NCBI GenBank assembly: GCA_951406725.2
Contig: OX597841.1
Location: 20,026,001 to 20,090,000 of the forward strand
Length of the DNA: 64,000 nt
Reading direction: 5' to 3'
Origin: Octopus vulgaris
Lineage: Eukaryota
Made by a program: the position numbers and the translations under genes. The notes below the pieces were generated by a model, which did no database searches, had not been told where the DNA came from, and worked only from the letters and a program-made list of their open reading frames with translations. Positions 16,303 to 63,533 of the stretch are shown one piece after another. The number at the start of each line of letters is the position of its first letter. Position 1 is the first letter of the stretch.

Positions 16303-19691
<3,389 letters not shown>

Positions 19692-20650: not shown

Positions 20651-20810
20651 TTTCTATTTCTATAATTATTTACTTAAATATATATATTTATGTAAGAACC
20701 ATGCTGGAAACATAAAACTTCTTCTCTGAACATCTTATTAGTACATTACTTGTGATATGTTTGTTTGGCTTACTTTTCATTTTCTCTGTGTCTTTCTGAA
20801 TTGACTATAT

Positions 20811-22163
20811 GTGTGTGTGTGTATGTATATATGCACGCCTGCCCCTGGCCAGATCCTAGCAGTGGATCTTTTTGCGGGCGCTTGTCAGCGTGCATTGGAG
20901 CGGTTCAACTTCTCCAGGCGCCAACGCCGCCTCAACATCTCCCCGGCTGAGCTCTTGGCTCTTCGTTCCCTCCAACGGCGCGCTGACATTATCATCAAAC
21001 CAGCTGACAAGGGTGGAGCTGTAGTGGTGTGGCGCACGGACCTCTATAGGGCCGAGGCTTTCCGCCAACTCAATGACACCTCCTTCTATTCCCCTCTGCC
21101 CTCTAACCCCACACGTAGCTACCAACAGACGGTATCCTTTACTGTCCAAGACCTCATCTCGTCCTCCCGTCTCCCCCGCACCGCATCCAACCTAATTGTG
21201 CGAACCCCACGTACCCCCACCATTTACTTCCTCCCCAAAATCCACAAACCCAACAACCCTGGCCGCCCCATCGTCTCCGCCTGTAACTGCCCCACGGAGC
21301 TCATCTCTAAATACCTCGACCGTGTCCTTGCCCCCCTAGTGGCATCTCTTCCCTCCCACATCCACGATACCAACCATGCTCTCCGGCTTTTCAACTCTTT
21401 CTCCTTTCCTCCCGGCTCCTCCAAAATCCTTTTTACTATGGACATCCAAAGCCTCTATACTGTTATCCCTCACCACGAAGGACTGCAGGCCCTTCGACAC
21501 TTTCTTGACCTCCGCTCTAACCCTGTACCTGACACCTCCACACTCATTCGTCTGGCCGAACTTGTCCTTACTCTGAACTGCTTCTCGTTCGCGGGCGAGT
21601 TCTACCATCAGGTCTCGGGAGTGGCCATGGGAACGCGAATGGGCCCCAACTATGCGAACCTGTTCGTTGGCTATGTTGAGGCCCAAATATTCTCTAATTT
21701 CACTGGTCCCACTCCTGAACTATATGGTCGTTATATTGACGACATTATCGGTGCCACCTCACTCTCCCGCGAACATCTAGATTCCTTCCTCTCTTTCGTC
21801 CAATCTTTCCATCCAGCCCTCCACTTCACTTCCACTATCTCCAACACCTCTGTCTCCTTCCTCGACATTTCGGTTAGCATTCTTCACTCCACTCTTACCA
21901 CCTCCATTCACTACAAACACACAGACTCACACTCATACCTCAACTTCTTTTCCTCCCACCCAGAACACACCAAGCTTTCCATCCCCTATTCCCAATTCCT
22001 CCGTCTATGTAGGCTCTGTAGTGACGACCATGACTTTGAGACTCAGTCTCAACGTATGGCTCACCACTTCACCCTACGTGGATACCCCCTCACCACTATC
22101 CACACCGCCCTTGCGTTTTTTAAATGTCTTGCTTCGAAAACTGCATTAGGTACGATTAGTTAA
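20811..22163 (+). mobile_element. Penelope-like element reverse transcriptase fragment (open frame, truncated at both ends)
   Basis: IKPADKGGAVVV, LPKIHKP..GRPIVS, MDIQSLYT, GVAMGTRMGPNYANLF, RYIDD, FLDI, SSHP..K.SIPYSQFLR motifs; no GIY-YIG follows; real homology spans roughly 20835-22112. Confidence 0.93.
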
Positions 22164-22495: not shown

Positions 22496-22844
22496 ATAAA
22501 TACATAGAATTTAATTAAATTAAAACAGATGGACACATTAGTATAATCTTACCTAATATCTCCAAGAAGATAAGGAGATAGACAAAGAACATGCTGCCTT
22601 CACTTCAGCTTAGAAGCTACCAAGGTATCAGGAAGAAAGACATGTTACAGATATTGCTTGTCACTATTTTATGGGGTCATCTTTAATTTATTAACTAGTT
22701 TTATCAAATCTTTGTATATCTAAAACCCGAGAGAACAAGGGGTAGTGTCTGTTAGGATTGGGGCTGAGGGAGTCGACAGAAATCATAAAAAACTATCAAG
22801 ATTTATTAGAAGCAATATCAAGAGATTTGGTAAAGAAACCTTAA

Positions 22845-24460
22845 ATCAAGATGCAGCAGTATTCAAGGTGTGGCCGTACAAAGGAGGAGAAGGTTCTTAA
22901 GATCCAGGAACTCATCCTACGAGCTATATCGACCTTATTGTTGATGTGTGCACTCCAACTGAGATCGTCATCAACAATTACACCCAGGTCTCTGATATTG
23001 TTAGAGGCTGTGAGCGGTTCCCCTGAAGGAAGAGAGTATGGCTGCTTTAGTGAGGAATTTCTTCCAAAATGCATCAGCTCAAATTTTCCCTTATTTAGTT
23101 GTATTTTGTTTCTGTCTGCCCTTTGACTCACAGCATATAGATCAGACTGGAGTTGAGTTTGGTCTGCTTCTTCATTGACGATTTGCTGGAGCTTAGTGTC
23201 ATCAGCAAATATTTTCACATTGCATTGATGTACAACATTGGAAAGGTCATTTATGTAAATTATAAAGGAGGAGCAGGCCCAAGACAGTCCCCTGGGGGAC
23301 ACCGCTAGTGACTTTTGCTGGGCTTGAGTGGACTCCATCAACTACAACATGTTGTGTTCTATTCGCCAGGAAATACTTGATCCAGTGTAGAACTTTTCCA
23401 CAGATTCCAACATTTGCCAATTTTGAGAGTAGGATATTATGGTCAACCCTGTCGAACGCTTTACTGAAGTCAAGATATATGACATCAGAGTTCGAACCTG
23501 TTCCCAAGGCTTCGAGTACATCTTCAATGTGGTGTAAGAGTTCTGTTAGACAGTCTCTGCCACAGCAAAAGCCATGCTGATTTGCATTTAGGAGTTTGTG
23601 GGTCTCCAGGAAGTCAGCTATCCTTGATCTTAACACTCTTTCAAACACTTTAATGATGTGGGAGGTGAGTGAGATTGGGCGATAGTTGACCGCGAGGGAT
23701 CTGTTTCCCTGTTTGAAAACCGAGATAACAGACTGGGATAGGAACTGCTTCGGTATATAATCTGAGTCTAAAGAATTTCTCCAGAGTTTGGTTGGAGGGA
23801 CTGCAAGTTGATATCTACATTCCTTCAGGAGACTAGCGGGAAATCTATCAGGGCCTACTGCAGAATAGTATTTGACCTTATTTATTGCTGCTACGACGTC
23901 AGTGGCAGTGAAGGTTATGTCTGAGATTTTGTGTTGGGAGTCAACTTCGTTCGTTTCCCTTATGTCAATATCAGTGGGATCACTAAAGACAGAGCAGTGT
24001 TGTTTCTGCAGTATTTCTGCCATTTCTTTAGCATTGTGTTGAGGAATGCCATTATCATCAATCAATGGCCCAATGGGTGAGACAGTGGTTCGATGCTTAT
24101 TTGCATAAGAACTTTTGGGTTCTGTTTGATGTTTTTGATTACCCACTGTTCCTCCACAGCTCTTTAATTTTCAATGGAGGTTTTCATGTTAGTCTGCAGA
24201 TGAAGTTTTTCCAACTCCTGCCTTTTCATTGTTGCTGAATGTGGATGTTGTATGTGGGAGTATTTTAATTGAGTCTTTTAATGAGCCTGAGGAGTGTTTT
24301 TTTTCTTTTTAGGAAGCCGGTTTCTGTTTGTGTTAGTAGATTTCATAGGAGCGTGTTTTGAGCATGTATAGGTGACAATGTTCTCAAAGTGTTGCCATGC
24401 AGTCTCAATTTGGGTGAGACTGAGAGTAAAAGACCAGTCGATGAAGGACAGATCCTTTCT
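22845..24460 (-). pseudogene. Degraded CR1/L2-group LINE RT remnant (different family from 16.5 kb)
   Basis: NYRPISLTSH, YLDFSKAFDRV, SGVPQGTVLG, FADD and RPHLEYC across a frameshift. Confidence 0.88.
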
Positions 24461-41776: not shown

Positions 41777-42344
41777 CACATACACACCATACACACATGG
41801 TTTACTGACCTACTAAAAATAGCAACAAATTCCCCTTCCAAACATACTCCTCCATCTTAAGAAAGAATACATTGCGTAAATCTGGGTTCACTATACATAT
41901 GAAGAGGGCAGGATGGTCACGGATGGAACATCTTTAATTATAGGGCTTCTAGATCAAGATGGGGCAGGAGTTAAACAAAATTAATCATTACACATGAGGA
42001 AAGAAGATAAACTTAGATTGGTGATGGTGGTGGTGGTATTGGGGGGTGCATGGAGACTATCATCATCATCATCATCATCATCATTATTGCCACAACCACC
42101 ACGTAGGACCACAACAACCCATCAAGGACCAGCAAGGGAACCTTGATTCATTGCTGGTTTAAAACTGCTGTAAATTGCCGCTAAATCTCCCTCTAGTTGC
42201 AAATGGACTTCTTTTTATAAAGGAAGAACACATAGGCTGATGTAGTCCTAGGTGCACAGGGCCCGGAAACAACACAGTCATCACAGTTGAAATGACTTTG
42301 GTGAGGGGTCAACTGAAAACATGATCAACAATAACCATCACTTG

Positions 42345-45300
42345 CACACACACACACACACACCATCAGCAGACAGCCATGCATATACACACACACACAC
42401 ACCATCAGCAGACAGCCATGCATACACACATACACACACCATCAGCAGACAGCCATGCATACACACACACACACACCATCAGCAGACAGCCATGCATACA
42501 CACACACACACACCATCAGCAGACAGCCATGCATACACACACACACACACCATCAGCAGACAGCCATGCATACACACACACACACACCATCAGCAGACAG
42601 CCATGCACACACACACACACACACCATCAGCAGACAGCCATGCATACACACACACACACACCATCAGCAGACAGCCATGCATACACACATACACACACCA
42701 TCAGCAGACAGCCATGCATACACACACACACACACCATCAGCAGACAGCCATGCATACACACACACACACACCATCAGCAGACAGCCATGCATACACACA
42801 CACACCATCAGCAGACAGCCATGCATACACACACACACACACCATCAGCAGACAGCCATGCACACACACACACACACACCATCAGCAGACAGCCATGCAT
42901 ACACACACACACACACCATCAGCAGACAGCCATGCATACACACATACACACACCATCAGCAGACAGCCATGCATGCACACACACACACACCATCAGCAGA
43001 CAGCCATGCATACACACACACACACACCATCAGCAGACAGCCATGCATACACACACACACACACCATCAGCAGACAGCCATGCATACACACACACACACA
43101 CCATCAGCAGACAGCCATGCATACACACACACACACACCATCAGCAGACAGCCATGCATACACACACACACACACCATCAGCAGACAGCCATGCACACAC
43201 ACACACACACACCATCAGCAGACAGCCATGCATACACACACACACACACCATCAGCAGACAGCCATGCATACACACACACACACACCATCAGCAGACAGC
43301 CATGCATACACACACACACACACCATCAGCAGACAGCCATGCATACACACACACACCATCAGCAGACAGCCATGCATACACACACACACACACCATCAGC
43401 AGACAGCCATGCACACACACACACACACACCATCAGCAGACAGCCATGCACACACACACACACACACCATCAGCAGACAGCCATGCATACACACACACAC
43501 ACACCATCAGCAGACAGCCATGCATACACACACACACACACCATCAGCAGACAGCCATGCATACACACACACACACACCATCAGCAGACAGCCATGCATA
43601 CACACACACACACACCATCAGCAGACAGCCATGCATACACACACACACACACCATCAGCAGACAGCCATGCATACACACACACACACACCATCAGCAGAC
43701 AGCCATGCACACACACACACACACACCATCAGCAGACAGCCATGCATACACACACACACACACCATCAGCAGACAGCCATGCATACACACACACACACAC
43801 CATCAGCAGACAGCCATGCATACACACACACACACACCATCAGCAGACAGCCATGCATACACACACACACACACCATCAGCAGACAGCCATGCATACACA
43901 CACACACACACCATCAGCAGACAGCCATGCATACACACACACACACACCATCAGCAGACAGCCATGCATACACACACACACACACCATCAGCAGACAGCC
44001 ATGCATACACACACACACACACCATCAGCAGACAGCCATGCACACACACACACACACACCATCAGCAGACAGCCATGCATACACACACACACACACCATC
44101 AGCAGACAGCCATGCATACACACACACACACACCATCAGCAGACAGCCATGCATACACACACACACACACCATCAGCAGACAGCCATGCATACACACACA
44201 CACACACCATCAGCAGACAGCCATGCATACACACACACACACACCATCAGCAGACAGCCATGCATACACACACACACACACCATCAGCAGACAGCCATGC
44301 ATACACACACACACACACCATCAGCAGACAGCCATGCATACACACACACACACCATCAGCAGACAGCCATGCATACACACACACACACACCATCAGCAGA
44401 CAGCCATGCATACACACACACACACACCATCAGCAGACAGCCATGCATACACACACACACACACCATCAGCAGACAGCCATGCATACACACACACACACA
44501 CCATCAGCAGACAGCCATGCATACACACACACACACACCATCAGCAGACAGCCATGCATACACACACACACACACCATCAGCAGACAGCCATGCATACAC
44601 ACACACACACACCATCAGCAGACAGCCATGCATACACACACACACACACCATCAGCAGACAGCCATGCATACACACACACACACACACCATCAGCAGACA
44701 GCCATGCATACACACACACACACACCATCAGCAGACAGCCATGCATACACACACACACACACCATCAGCAGACAGCCATGCATACACACACACACACACC
44801 ATCAGCATACAGCCATTCATACACACACACACACACCATCAGCAGACAGCCATGCATACACACACACACACACCATCAGCAGACAGCCATGCATACACAC
44901 ACACACACACCATCAGCGGACAGCCATGCATACACACACACACACACCATCAGCAGACAGCCATGCATACACACACACACACACCATCAGCAGACAGCCA
45001 TGCATACACACACACACACACCATCAGCAGACAGCCATGCATACACACACACACACACCATCAGCAGACAGCCATGCATACACACACACACACACCATCA
45101 GCAGACAGCCATGCATACACACACACACACACCATCAGCAGACAGCCATGCATACACACACACACACACCATCAGCAGACAGCCATGCACACACACACAC
45201 ACACACCATCAGCAGACAGCCATGCACACACACACACACACACCATCAGCAGACAGCCATGCATACACACACACACACACCATCAGCAGACAGCCATGCA

Positions 45301-48300
45301 TACACACACACACACACCATCAGCAGACAGCCATGCATACACACACACACACACCATCAGCAGACAGCCATGCATACACACACACACACACCATCAGCAG
45401 ACAGCCATGCATACACACACACACCATCAGCAGACAGCCATGCATACACACACACACACACCATCAGCAGACAGCCATGCATACACACACACACACACCA
45501 TCAGCAGACAGCCATGCATACACACACACACACACCATCAGCAGACAGCCATGCATACACACACACACACACCATCAGCAGACAGCCATGCATACACACA
45601 CACACACACCATCAGCAGACAGCCATGCATACACACACACACACACCATCAGCAGACAGCCATGCATACACACACACACACACATCAGCAGACAGCCATG
45701 CATACACACACACACACACCATCAGCAGACAGCCATGCATACACACACACACACACCATCAGCAGACAGCCATGCATACACACACACACACACCATCAGC
45801 AGACAGCCATGCATACACACACACACACCATCAGCAGACAGCCATGCATACACACACACACACACCATCAGCAGACAGCCATGCATACACACACACACAC
45901 ACCATCAGCAGACAGCCATGCACACACACACACACACACCATCAGCAGACAGCCATGCATACACACACACACACACCATCAGCAGACAGCCATGCATACA
46001 CACACACACACACCATCAGCAGACAGCCATGCATACACACACACACACACCATCAGCAGACAGCCATGCATACACACACACACACACCATCAGCAGACAG
46101 CCATGCACACACACACACACACACCATCAGCAGACAGCCATGCATACACACACACACACACCATCAGCAGACAGCCATGCATACACACACACACACACCA
46201 TCAGCAGACAGCCATGCAACACACACACACACACCATCAGCAGACAGCCATGCATACACACACACACACACCATCAGCAGACAGCCATGCATACACACAC
46301 ACACACACCATCAGCAGACAGCCATGCATACACACACACACACACCATCAGCAGACAGCCATGCACACACACACACACACCATCAGCAGACAGCCATGCA
46401 TACACACACACACACACCATCAGCAGACAGCCATGCATACACACACACACACACCATCAGCAGACAGCCATGCATACACACACACACACACCATCAGCAG
46501 ACAGCCATGCATACACACACACACACACCATCAGCAGACAGCCATGCATACACACACACACACACCATCAGCAGACAGCCATGCATACACACACACACAC
46601 ACCATCAGCAGACAGCCATGCATACACACACACACACACCATCAGCAGACAGCCATGCATACACACACACACACACCATCAGCAGACAGCCATGCATACA
46701 CACACACACACACCATCAGCAGACAGCCATGCATACACACACACACACACCATCAGCAGACAGCCATGCATACACACACACACACACCATCAGCAGACAG
46801 CCATGCATACACACACACACACACCATCAGCAGACAGCCATGCATACACACACACACACACACCATCAGCAGACAGCCATGCATACACACACACACACAC
46901 ACCATCAGCAGACAGCCATGCATACACACACACACACACCATCAGCAGACAGCCATGCATACACACACACACACACACCATCAGCAGACAGCCATGCATA
47001 CACACACACACACACCATCAGCAGACAGCCATGCATACACACACACACACACCATCAGCAGACAGCCATGCATACACACACACACACACCATCAGCAGAC
47101 AGCCATGCATACACACACACACACACCATCAGCAGACAGCCATGCATACACACACACACACACCATCAGCAGACAGCCATGCATACACACACACACACAC
47201 CATCAGCAGACAGCCATGCACACACACACACACACACCATCAGCAGACAGCCATGCACACACACACACACACACCATCAGCAGACAGCCATGCATACACA
47301 CACACACACACCATCAGCAGACAGCCATGCATACACACACACACACACCATCAGCAGACAGCCATGCATACACACACACACACACCATCAGCAGACAGCC
47401 ATGCACACACACACACACACCATCAGCAGACAGCCATGCACACACACACACACACACCATCAGCAGACAGCAGCACAGCCATGCAACACACACACACACA
47501 CACCATCAGCAGACAGCCATGCATACACACACACACACACCATCAGCAGACAGCCATGCACACACACACACACACACCATCAGCAGACAGCCATGCACAC
47601 ACACACACACACCATCAGCAGACAGCCATGCATACACACACACACACACCATCAGCAGACAGCCATGCATACACACACACACACACCATCAGCAGACAGC
47701 CATGCATACACACACACACACACCATCAGCAGACAGCCATGCACACACACACACACACACCATCAGCAGACAGCCATGCATACACACACACACACACCAT
47801 CAGCAGACAGCCATGCATACACACACACACACACCATCAGCAGACAGCCATGCATACACACACACACACACCATCAGCAGACAGCCATGCATACACACAC
47901 ACACACACCATCAGCAGACAGCCATGCACACACACACACACACACCATCAGCAGACAGCCATGCATACACACACACACACACCATCAGCAGACAGCCATG
48001 CATACACACACACACACACACATCAGCAGACAGCCATGCAACACACACACACACACACATCAGCAGACAGCCATGCATACACACACACACACACCATCAG
48101 CAGACAGCCATGCATACACACACACACACACCATCAGCAGACAGCCATGCACACACACACACACACACCATCAGCAGACAGCCATGCATACACACACACA
48201 CACACCATCAGCAGACAGCCATGCATACACACACACACACACCATCAGCAGACAGCCATGCACACACACACACACACACCATCAGCAGACAGCCATGCAT

Positions 48301-48460
48301 ACACACACACACACACCATCAGCAGACAGCCATGCATACACACACACACACACCATCAGCAGACAGCCATGCATACACACACACACACACCATCAGCAGA
48401 CAGCCATGCATACACACACACACACACCATCAGCAGACAGCCATGCACACACACATACAC
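42345..48460. repeat. 37-bp minisatellite array, about 165 units: CCATCAGCAGACAGCCATGCAT plus (AC)n
   Basis: Period of 37 bp measured directly (e.g. 43581 to 43618); the 37-aa peptide repeat equals 3 units; unit count estimated from length/37. Confidence 0.98.
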
Positions 48461-48489
48461 ACGCACATGCACACACTCAAAATATATGA

Positions 48490-57712: not shown

Positions 57713-57747
57713 ATTTAACGTTTCGAGCGGAGCTCTTCGTCAGAAAC
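57713..57747 (-). ncRNA. Minimal type I hammerhead with intact core in short PLE-like element 57616-57808
   Basis: Minus strand GTTT-CTGACGA-A-GAGC-TCC-GCTC-GAAA-CG-TT-AAAT; palindromic AACGTT stem III (dimer type). Confidence 0.8.
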
Positions 57748-60239: not shown

Positions 60240-61430
60240 AACTTGTAAATAGATGGCCATGCTATGTAAACGAAATGTTGGATACACCTATACCTGAATG
60301 TTGAAAAAGTTCACCTTACAATCTTGAGAGCTCAGGTTAAACCCCATTCTATGCAATATCTGTTGACCCGTTTTCATTTGCCTGGTAAACAGGACTGGAA
60401 AACAATTTTGAGAGGATGTGTTCAGTTGTGGCTTAGAGCAGGGACATAGCTTTTGCTTCCCAACTACTTCTGGGTTCAGTCTATTACATAGTACCTTGGC
60501 CAAGTGTCTCCTACTAAAGCTCCAGCCTGGCCAAAGCCTTAATGCTGGTTTTTCTGTGACAGACAGAATCTGATCTTGTCTCAAAGCAAAACCCATTGGT
60601 GATTTTCCTTTCCTCAAAACCATGCACCAGGACTTTGCATATCTGAAACTCATTTGTGCAAATGCCACAGGCTTCTCTAGTTTCCAGAGATTCTTCTTAA
60701 CTACCTGCTCTGTTGTACGAGGAATTCCTCCATGAAGGTGTTGATGGGTGGTTGCACTCTTGTCTTGCTGCAGACCACAGTACTCCTTCTCTGCTCACCT
60801 GACTAGCATATTCATTACTAATTGTTGGTAGCAGTCAGATGTCGGCTGACCAGAGGAAACCCTCAACCTGAACTTGCTGTATTGCAACTTCAACCAACTT
60901 GTGTGACATCAAGCAACAGGCATTAGCCAGACCTAGCCATAGTGCAACCAAGGCCCCTCTTTTCTTGACATGCCTCCCTAATAAACTGGGTCACCAAGTC
61001 TGTTGTCCAAGGCAACCAGAGACTCCTGAAATGCCTCCCTTCTCTACAGACATGTCAACATAGCTATTGTTCAGCTGAAAGCTAGAGTCTCTTCGATACA
61101 ATGTTGAAGAAAATCTTATAAGACACGAAACTGACCAATATTTTCAGCTCACTTCCCTTTGGGTTGCAGACATATTTTGCAGACATTTTGGGGCAGCTGA
61201 TGATAATGTGGGTGATATCTTCCACATTAGTATAGCAGAGCCAACATCTTTTATCACAATGTGGAGGTTTGGTAGTATCTTTGTCCCTCTTGTTTACCAG
61301 ATATTTGGTAGGTATCTCTTGTTCCTGGTTAGAGAAGGCGTAGCCAGGGAGGTAATGTATCTGTTGTAGGTCCAGGTGAGGCTCTCGTTGTTATCCACCA
61401 GCTTATGAGATATGCACCCAAGCATTGCTT
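60240..61430 (-). pseudogene. R2-group (Hero/NeSL-like) non-LTR RT remnant, interrupted by a SINE fragment at ~60430-60540
   Basis: FFNIVSKRL, VALWLGLANA and FAQMSFRYAKSWCMVLRKGK...VTEKP patterns. Confidence 0.65.
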
Positions 61431-61702: not shown

Positions 61703-62330
61703 TAATTTCAACATGAAATACGAAAACATTTGTTTTCGTATTTCATGTTGTTTACTGTTGGTGACGTCCTGTACCCATATATACATTTGTATTACACTAT
61801 TGTATGACTGAGCACCTTCGCATCGATTCGATTCGATTCGTTTCATTTCATTTCCTCTTCTTCTCCCAGTACAGTTTTTATATATAATTATGACGCGAAA
61901 CCCTATACCTCTTTGCTTAACCTTCCCTTCTCTCCCTTTCTCTCTCTCTCTCACTCCTCCTCATCTCTCTCACAACCGTTTGTCTTCCTCTATCTCTCTC
62001 TCTCTCTCTCACTCCTCCTCTCTCTCTCTCACAGCCGGCCAAATACTTCCTTTTGCATGCGGCCTTCTAATTGTAAATACACGGTACTCTTGCGCTCCTT
62101 GAATCTCTCCTCCTCCAGGCAAAAAAGGTCCTCTTTGGTTGTTTTCTTGTGTGTTTTTATTTCTTGTATTGTATTTTTTCGTAATTGTATTTTTATTTTG
62201 TATTTTATTTCGTATTTTATTTTGTAATTTTATTTGTATCGTTTTTACGTCCTGTTTGTGTCACATTTTGTTCTTTCCTTGTTTTTACCCCTCTGCGAAG
62301 TAATTTCCTTTAATTTCTTCGCAGGAAGGG

Positions 62331-62406
62331 CTAGTTCGACGAGTCGTGTTCTGTCCTCACCTTCGAAACACGCTGGAGTTGAACTAGGGACAGCTGATGA
62401 AGGGGA
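62331..62406 (+). ncRNA. Non-circularly permuted (pseudoknotted) hammerhead motif, copy 1
   Basis: CGTGT-T-CTGTCCT ... CTTC-GAAA-CACG ... GGGACAG-CTGATGA-A-GGGG; outer helix CTAGTTCGAC/GTTGAACTAG. Confidence 0.78.
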
Positions 62407-63132
62407 TTTTTCCTTGTGTAGTTTGTCTAGTACTCTGTTTTTTCTTTGTTAAAAAAAGGTTCGTTCCATGCTTGTTTTTACGTTTTCGTTCTTGTTGAGT
62501 TCTACGTATATATATTTATATATGCATGTATATATACATGTAGATGTAGGTACGTACATATATGTATGTATGTATGCATATATTTTATTTATTACACTAT
62601 TGTATGACTGAGCGCCTTCGCGTCGATTCGTTCTGTTTCTTCTTCTTCTCCCAGTACAGTTTTTATATATATATATATGTGTGCATATATATATTATTTA
62701 TATTATTATTTGATTGAACGCCACACATCCATTTCCAAGTAAGTTTATCTTGACTTTTTGATGTGAATCTACCCTATACTGTTCTCTCGCCCTATCGTTT
62801 TCTCTTTCATCCTTTCTCTAATTCCCTTCTTTCTCCCCTTCACCGTTTTCTATCTGTCTCTCTCTCTCCCCTCTTTCTCCTTTACTCTCTCACTGCTCAC
62901 ACGTGACCATCATCCATTTTTCTTTTTCTCATGTGATCATCTTTCTTTTCTTTCAGGGCTGTTCTAAGGACTGGACATATCCTATCTCTCTCTTCATCCT
63001 TTCTCTTGTCAAAGAAAGTATTTCTCCAGCATTCGCTATTTTACCCTCTCCATGTTGGTTTTCCTTCGGTTTCCTTGTATGTCTCCACTGTCCTGTTTTT
63101 GTTCCCAACTTTGACCCTCCATAAATTTACAT

Positions 63133-63493
63133 ATGCAAATATGGGTACAGGACGTCACCAACAGTAAACAACATGAAATACGGAAGCAAATGAGTTGAAT
63201 AGATAAACAAGAGAAACAAATGGAAAACGGCAGGTAACATAAAGAATGACCCTTCATCAGTGTCCCAAATTTTATTTTGGCGCATTATGGGAGCAACTGT
63301 CTTTGAAGACTCATATTGTTGGTCAATACTCGAAATGAGGAGTAGATAGACAGCCGACAACTGATGAAGGGTCGTCCTTTATGTTACTTGTTCTGTTTTC
63401 CATTTGTTTCTCTCGTTGTTTGCATATTGGACTCATTTGTTTTCAGATTTCATGTTGTTTACTGTTGGTGACGTCCTGTACCCATATATGCAT
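63133..63493. repeat. ~130-bp diverged inverted repeat (63133-63264 / 63356-63493), PLE-type foldback
   Basis: Arms are reverse-complementary; the terminal part recurs at 61731-61782 behind a perfect 20-bp hairpin at 61709-61750. Confidence 0.9.
63297..63372 (+). ncRNA. Non-circularly permuted (pseudoknotted) hammerhead motif, copy 2
   Basis: CTCAT-A-TTGTTGG ... ACTC-GAAA-TGAG ... CCGACAA-CTGATGA-A-GGGT; outer helix CTGTCT/AGACAG. Confidence 0.82.
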
Positions 63494-63495
63494 TA

Positions 63496-63533
63496 TCTTT
63501 CTGTTGAAGAGCGTAGGCTCGAAACGTTAAAGA
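63496..63533 (+). ncRNA. Minimal hammerhead-like motif with variant core (CTGTTGA) in a PLE terminus ending at (TA)n near 63662
   Basis: TCTTT-CTGTTGA-A-GAGC-GTAG-GCTC-GAAA-CG-TT-AAAGA. Confidence 0.62.

Follow-up and report, generated by a model that had tools for sequence, protein, structure and literature searches.

Hammerhead ribozymes consist of three blocks of sequence: S, in which a strand of stem III is followed by H17 and by a strand of stem I; G, in which a strand of stem II is followed by GAAA and by the other strand of stem III; and C, in which the other strand of stem I is followed by CUGANGA and by the other strand of stem II. The two motifs analysed here lie in a stretch of 64,000 nucleotides of the Octopus vulgaris genome (hereafter, the window). 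Their closest described counterparts are the RNAs of type-SGC (HRIMA-1; Eckert 2023, PMC10085705), which were validated in vitro and are found in metatranscriptomes. The accessible part of this publication takes block C to be indivisible and reports that permuted RNAs of such kind were not found in genomes of known organisms. The window motifs resemble type-SGC in their S-G-C order, in the short linker between stems I and II, in the helix that ties the distal ends of these stems, and in all the letters of the core. They differ in block C, which is unbroken in type-SGC and is here interrupted at A9/G10.1 by stem IV and hairpin V. Type-CSG, known from two metagenome sequences described in the same source, has the same pseudoknotted circle of strands, opened outside the core in type-CSG and inside it in the window motifs. 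The PK hammerhead, in the accessible description (PMC11300833), also has an extra helix named IV and a pseudoknot that replaces the loop-loop contact. However, its A9 and G10.1 stay connected, and its helix IV is peripheral instead of inserted in the core.

The repeats that carry the motifs also have described counterparts. The type I and minimal hammerheads of the pLTRs of canonical Penelope-like elements (PLEs) and those of non-LTR retrozymes (bioRxiv 10.64898/2026.07.22.740005, accessible part) occur once per unit, near the 3' end, in ORF-less tandem-forming PLE derivatives. This is also the arrangement of our families A and B, but these have ~800-nt units and a six-helix pseudoknotted form where the former have a circularly permuted type I hammerhead. 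Naiad PLEs target (TA)n and were reported to be without canonical hammerheads; the accessible part of the report (PMC8557442) lists unexplained ‘HHR_core’ and ‘HHR_half_core’ words for them. Families A and B share with Naiads the targeting of (TA)n, the partial tandems, and the inverted 5'-truncated copies, and differ from them by the absence of an ORF. No physical link to a Naiad ORF was found for A, B, E, or H at the loci examined.

Our best overall explanation, to which we give a probability of about 75% on sequence evidence, is that the motifs represent a seventh wiring of the hammerhead, with the core letters and stems I to III kept, the S-G-C order, and the A9-G10.1 backbone link absent. 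This fold would be the ribozyme of Naiad-clade PLEs, in their 3' UTR, and of 0.8-kb relatives without an ORF, among them families A and B. Our literature search, which covered few subscription papers and none of the bioRxiv supplements, found neither a hammerhead opened at A9/G10.1 nor permuted hammerheads in Naiads; the opening is also absent from the accessible parts of PMC3088659, PMC10162972, and PMC13725137.

Two permuted hammerhead motifs in neighbouring repeats

The initial annotation described two hammerheads with the order S1-S3-S2 (i.e., S-G-C), and we recovered every one of their segments where it had placed them (Table 1). When applied to the window, a descriptor of this order matches exactly these two sites, whereas 100 locally shuffled versions gave no match; the strict descriptor likewise has none in 8.39 Mb of shuffled sequence. 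We also confirmed stems I and III, the outer helix, the hairpin upstream, and the repeat context. The motifs have the core letters of hammerheads (C3-U4-G5-A6-N7-G8-A9, G12-A13-A14, A15.1-U16.1) and an H17 other than G. As anticipated, standard models miss them: Rfam gives no match at gathering score in the window, which is expected because the block order is permuted. Nested folding of the core region gives no signal either (z of 0.32 and 0.55), which is expected for a pseudoknotted fold. Another word of the window, GGGGCAGCTGATGA at 61190, lacks GAAA and stems and was dropped as a chance occurrence.

Copy 1 is likely a competent member of the family, with predicted cleavage. Copy 2 is probably disabled at this locus, because an inversion severs the 5' strands of stem IV and hairpin V and because the end of the inverted arm (63231-63261) can pair over the core: it is 90% complementary to 63360-63390, a span covering CUGAUGA.

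Table 1. Positions of the repeat units and of the parts of the two motifs in the window.
Feature	Position	Strand	Basis or remark
Family B copy, short 3'-end remnant	61727-61791	+	Direct repeat and blast; upstream of unit A
Family A unit, 800 bp, without ORF	61801-62600	+	Blast against 30 loci and direct repeats
Second family A unit, partial (pseudo-LTR-like partial tandem)	62601-~62671	+	Adjoins unit 61801-62600
Family B unit, 5' part	62664-63126	+	Blast
Inverted 5'-truncated family B 3' end	63127-63261	-	Inverted repeats and blast; interrupts hairpin V of copy 2
Family B unit, 3' part	63263-63493	+	Blast
Copy 1, complete core-opened hammerhead, six helices	62288-62405	+	Strict descriptor match plus helices IV and V
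Copy 1 stem IV, 5' strand CCCCT	62288-62292	+	Pairs with AGGGG 62401-62405, directly after A9
Copy 1 hairpin V, 8-bp stem	62293-62324	+	Ends directly before G10.1
Copy 1 stem II, 5' strand GAAGG	62325-62329	+	G10.1 is 62325; pairs with CCTTC 62360-62364
Copy 1 interaction helix (Ih), 5' strand	62331-62340	+	Pairs with 62378-62387; joins distal ends of stems II and I
Copy 1 block S	62345-62357	+	Stem III 62345-62349; H17 U62350 (predicted cut after it); stem I 62351-62357
Copy 1 block G	62360-62372	+	Stem II 3' strand; G12-A13-A14 62365-62367; stem III 3' strand 62368-62372
Copy 1 stem I, 3' strand, and core	62387-62400	+	Stem I 62387-62393; C3-A9 CTGATGA 62394-62400
Copy 2 stem IV, 5' strand GACCCT	63113-63118	+	End of family B 5' part
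Copy 2 hairpin V, 5' arm CCATAA	63119-63124	+	End of family B 5' part
Copy 2, main part	63285-63373	+	Hairpin V 3' arm 63285-63290; fails strict descriptor
Copy 2 stem II, 5' strand GAGCA	63291-63295	+	Partner TACTC 63327-63331, one mismatch; family B majority TGCTC
Copy 2 Ih	63297-63302/63348-63353	+	
Copy 2 stem III	63310-63314/63335-63339	+	H17 A63315 (predicted cut after it)
Copy 2 stem I	63316-63322/63354-63360	+	Core 63361-63367
Copy 2 stem IV, 3' strand	63368-63373	+	

Distribution of the motif and conservation of the core

Among 290 loci collected, we found 125 distinct sites with stems I and III, in 16 clusters. A pattern made from a word of the window gave 874 matches (0 in the control) and revealed two further families, A' and D. 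For detailed comparisons, we hand-picked 15 good copies, 10 from this genome and 5 from metagenome contigs, all passing a descriptor that requires the upstream stem II described below. Some of these representatives are related to each other (A/A'/A2/B; H/H2/H3; L293/L295). The linker between blocks G and C, given as a 14-nt constant of the family in the annotation, is not constant in the table of their linkers.

The motif could be a hammerhead-derived structure that does not cut and is kept because the PLE protein uses it to recognise its RNA. Two facts from the accessible parts of published work fit this idea: one PLE hammerhead (PAc) needed protein, and insertion in vitro did not depend on its cleavage (PMC11167929); and the A9-G10.1 link is unbroken in the published hammerheads compared (PMC10085705, PMC11300833). 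Yet the catalytic letters (C3-A9, G12-A14, U16.1-A15.1, G10.1-C11.1), all required by the descriptor, are invariant in the 15 representatives, where H17 is never G, whereas all helices vary freely. In family G, U at 10.1 occurs as single-copy changes (2/5 G copies reaching that far). Furthermore, words with GAAA before CUGANGA exceed their reversed controls genome-wide, 8-fold in one count (20,882 versus 2,491) and 2.7-fold in another (31,994 versus 11,768). The total excess of ~38,600 is one of words, many in decayed or truncated copies, rather than of verified ribozymes. We thus regard a non-cutting structure as improbable. Viral contigs scanned with one motif gave six matches, in none of which block S was seen by eye.

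Stem II probably pairs with an upstream strand

The annotation built stem II from the GGGG or GGGT that follows CTGATGA and an ‘extra A’. This pairing is possible in both copies, but it is rich in wobbles and absent in other lineages; the covarying partner is an upstream strand, and G10.1 and the 5' strand of stem II precede the cleavage site by 20-27 nt. In the 15 representatives, the upstream stem has 74 Watson-Crick pairs out of 75, against 40.7 when strands are permuted among lineages (0/20000), although permutation values overstate independence because the representatives were selected on this stem and several are related. Its first position is G-C in all 15, and positions 2-5 use 3-4 pair types. 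By comparison, stems I and III have 73/75 and 68/75 pairs. The three stems flank the core, and compensatory change is found for stem II with the upstream strand: three of its five pairs change on both sides in a MAFFT alignment of 19 copies of the A/B superfamily (alignment A2).

The upstream stem is also found in sites that were not selected on stem II. A Watson-Crick stem of at least 4 bp at 11.1 is present in 33/36 sites of family A, 12/26 of B, 17/21 of H, 16/19 of D, 1/11 of E, and 6/12 of the others, versus 20/36, 1/26, 1/21, 0/19, 0/11, and 0/12, respectively, in a control window further upstream. In family E, the upstream stem mostly has three G-C pairs. In these unselected sites, the offset of G10.1 is mostly -20 to -26.

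These data also bear on whether the motifs are ordinary type-SGC hammerheads, with stem II made by the strand after CUGAUGA plus one extra A, and with upstream pairings that are peripheral or inhibitory. The tolerance of a one-nucleotide insertion after A9 in a viroid hammerhead counts for this reading, as do the presence of a G within 3 nt after A9 in 14 of the 15 representatives and the pairing of the downstream 4-bp stem in 93% of the cells of the A/B alignment. In copy 2, where the upstream pairing has a mismatch, the downstream pairing is slightly more stable (-5.8 versus -4.5 kcal/mol). However, downstream pairing in A and B is mostly G-U, and the same tail forms a Watson-Crick stem IV with the 5' end. 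Across lineages, the strand after CUGANGA pairs at the level of chance (20-21/75 pairs versus 18-25 when permuted, in the 15 representatives), and an in-register Watson-Crick stem of at least 4 bp was found there in none of the 125 sites with stems I and III. A stem II strand directly after CUGANGA (with at most 1-2 extra nt), as in type-SGC, exists only as the wobble-rich alternative of A and B. Finally, the G after A9 is missing in one metagenome Naiad (L291) and in several published Naiad consensi, among those seen in PMC8557442. An ordinary type-SGC fold is therefore even less probable than a non-cutting structure, even if it is possibly a second conformation (a switch) in families A and B only.

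Two helices are probably inserted between A9 and G10.1

The core-opened reading accounts for the tail that follows A9. In 14 of the 15 representatives, this tail pairs, mostly with zero gaps, with the strand just 5' of hairpin V, which itself abuts G10.1; in the other one, stem IV and hairpin V are absent within the search range. Stem IV has 91 pairs with own tails and 47.9 with swapped tails (0/20000). When own and control tails are compared for stems of at least 4 bp, the former prevail in families A (30/33 versus 2), B (9/16 versus 0), and H (14/16 versus 7), and in the remaining families taken together (3/6 versus 1). This test does not support stem IV in families D (9/15 versus 7) and E (2/2 versus 2) because own tails are not above the control.

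Since the tail pairs with the 5' end, the 3' strand previously assigned to stem II is the 3' strand of stem IV. With stem II upstream, the tail in stem IV, and hairpin V at G10.1, the hammerhead is therefore predicted to be opened between A9 and G10.1, and, with two helices at this place, it is not a plain type-SGC. Its order is very probably IV-[V]-II-Ih-III-H-I-II'-GAAA-III'-Ih'-I'-CUGANGA-IV', as judged from the pairings. The same order results if the ends of the SGC chain are joined and the circle so formed is cut at A9/G10.1. The order of the blocks is thus not new, since it was published as type-SGC (PMC10085705, accessible part), and the difference lies in helices IV and V between A9 and G10.1.

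Ih is present in all 15 representatives, where stems I and II are linked by 1-7 nt. Such short linkers, the head-to-tail occurrence of units, and a title on dimeric cleavage of PLE hammerheads among the supplementary references of PMC10085705 (accessible part) could suggest that the helices form only between two RNAs or tandem units, as in minimal PLE hammerheads, sparing a single chain the threading of pseudoknots, but stem III is not palindromic and type-SGC and type-CSG RNAs with comparable linkers cleave themselves in cis during transcription (same source), which makes an obligate dimer the least probable of the alternatives.

If six helices form in one chain, the six orders of the blocks would not exhaust the topologies of the hammerhead, because block C could be split. 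A natural site in the core accepting two helices would also serve ribozyme engineering and help to compare the hammerhead with pistol.

Families A and B are related non-autonomous repeats

Copy 1 belongs to a family of 800-bp units. The junction word of family A occurs at 61792 and 62592, i.e., with a period of 800 bp. Copy 1 is 98%-100% identical to the 40 relatives scored among 1548 candidates of this 2.8-Gb genome, and its 41-nt core has 267 exact matches (0 in the reversed control). Family A is young. Downstream of the unit, 16 of 30 loci have (TA)n, 12 have the beginning of another unit, and two have other sequence; nine of the 30 have a unit junction upstream. Full 800-bp tandems with one hammerhead per unit occur at two loci (L020 and L021). 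Copy 2 is ~89%-92% identical to the 40 copies scored among 2134 candidates (itself at 100%). The two copies had been described as sharing almost no sequence, but families A and B show homology in the region of the ribozyme and form one superfamily, with a mean column identity of 69% in alignment A2. Neither an ORF nor similarity to Naiads was found in the loci of A and B, which are therefore non-autonomous. They have the ORF-less tandem units with one hammerhead each of non-LTR retrozymes, without the type I hammerhead in the window motifs.

We recorded the 5' starts of 103 copies: 24 are 4-16 nt past the predicted cut, none at 0 to +3, and 25 extend for at least 90 nt. These counts were not taken as evidence because, in divergent copies, the extension ends prematurely. 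At the inversion junction near copy 2 (63247-63262), we observed microhomology between the direct and inverted strands, created by the complementarity of stem IV. This suggests that a helix of the ribozyme itself guided a template switch.

The fold is found behind Naiad proteins

A second line of evidence links the fold to Naiads. Family D has a ribozyme ~1 kb behind a Naiad RT in this genome, e.g., at locus L156, and 7 of its 30 loci combine RT motifs (GIPMG or YxDD) with the ribozyme word. The RT fragment of L156 matches 12 proteins with 41%-55% identity; where full length, these have an N-terminal GIY-YIG, CxC, DKA, and a C-terminal RT, which is the Naiad layout. Seven further Naiad RT loci include two with a D-type ribozyme downstream and five with none within 2.1 kb. 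The matches to Naiads in this genome are incomplete, and most of them contain stops.

The alignment of Naiad proteins led us to 14 metagenome loci, of which five have the full fold in the 3' UTR (L291, L293, L294, L295, and L300); L291, L293, and L295 match the Naiad query almost end to end. The remaining loci include four with 62 nt or less after the ORF match, two with weak RT matches, and three Naiad contigs in which no intact core was found in tails of 343-792 nt. A locus with a weak RT match (L304) has a hammerhead core in canonical order at its 3' end.

We also tallied by eye the core-word passages of the 54 published Naiad consensi (supplement of PMC8557442), a sample that covers part of their ends. 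The core-opened fold was seen in 10 of them: three from Acropora and two from Octopus, as assigned by the next header, and one from Beroe, one from a crustacean, and three others, as assigned by position in the file. Family D matches by eye the published 3' end of an Octopus Naiad. Seven nematode consensi have instead a clean type-CSG (File S5). Several core words of arthropod Naiads did not parse, and the bivalve consensi, in the passages seen, showed none.

In summary, the core-opened hammerhead is probably the missing ribozyme of Naiad elements. The annotation had proposed a selected family of non-circularly permuted hammerheads in Penelope-like repeats: the order and the repeats stand, stem II and the plain topology do not, and the hosts are Naiad-clade PLEs and ORF-less relatives. 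We consider it fairly likely that Naiads from ctenophores and cnidarians to crustaceans and cephalopods have an active six-helix core-opened hammerhead, that nematode Naiads have its CSG permutation, and that this genome has approximately tens of thousands of such cores. The non-circular form, supposedly rare and described in a few hundred metatranscriptome sequences, would then extend to animal genomes and be among the commonest ribozymes of invertebrates. This would explain why Naiads seemed to be without a ribozyme, and resolve the stated puzzle that they ‘lack canonical HHR’.

A search for GIY-YIG recovered an abundant PLE of another clade, intact over 781 aa and with a C-terminal GIY-YIG, but it is joined in sense to the 3' end of A or B in 0 of 30 loci. 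It is still a possible mobiliser of family A. This PLE (L067 and ~20 related loci) has an RT and a repeat-rich 3' UTR where a hammerhead core was not seen; it may use another ribozyme.

A possible role in the propagation of the elements

Intact members are predicted to self-cleave, which we regard as quite probable. Hammerheads use G12 as the base and the 2'-OH of G8 as the acid (PMC11300833, accessible part), and by the same chemistry the RNA would be cut after H17 (U62350, A63315), leaving a 2',3'-cyclic phosphate and a 5'-OH. Stem IV, hairpin V, and stem II would meet at A9/G10.1 and probably hold A9 against G12 and G10.1, replacing the missing link.

As to a role in transposition, for which we see the chances as evenly balanced, retrozyme and PLE biology suggests that one cut per unit would trim read-through or tandem transcripts to unit-length RNAs with ends fit for circularisation. 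Such RNAs may be circularised and then reverse-transcribed in trans by a PLE enzyme. Reverse transcription for more than one round, from a fixed 3' start ~250 nt past the cut, would produce the head-to-tail partial tandems, which a tandem linear template explains as well.

Other features of the window

Two minimal type I hammerhead-like motifs are found outside families A and B. One, with a palindromic stem III, belongs to a third repeat family and lies immediately downstream of copy 2 (63496-63533, + strand). Its core is CUGUNGA (A6 to U) in the copies seen, which makes it a family-wide variant. The other, a related motif at 57715-57745 (- strand), has the standard CUGACGA core, GAAACGUU, and a weak stem I. 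The window also includes a truncated Penelope-like RT frame (20805-22163, + strand; 452 aa from stop to stop), 22%-23% identical to Naiad proteins, and two LINE-type RT frames, one open over 819 aa (17140-19599, + strand) and the other broken (22841-24170, - strand). Finally, positions 42343-48462 are occupied by a 6.1-kb array with 165 copies of a 37-bp unit, 97% matches, and a strong strand skew.
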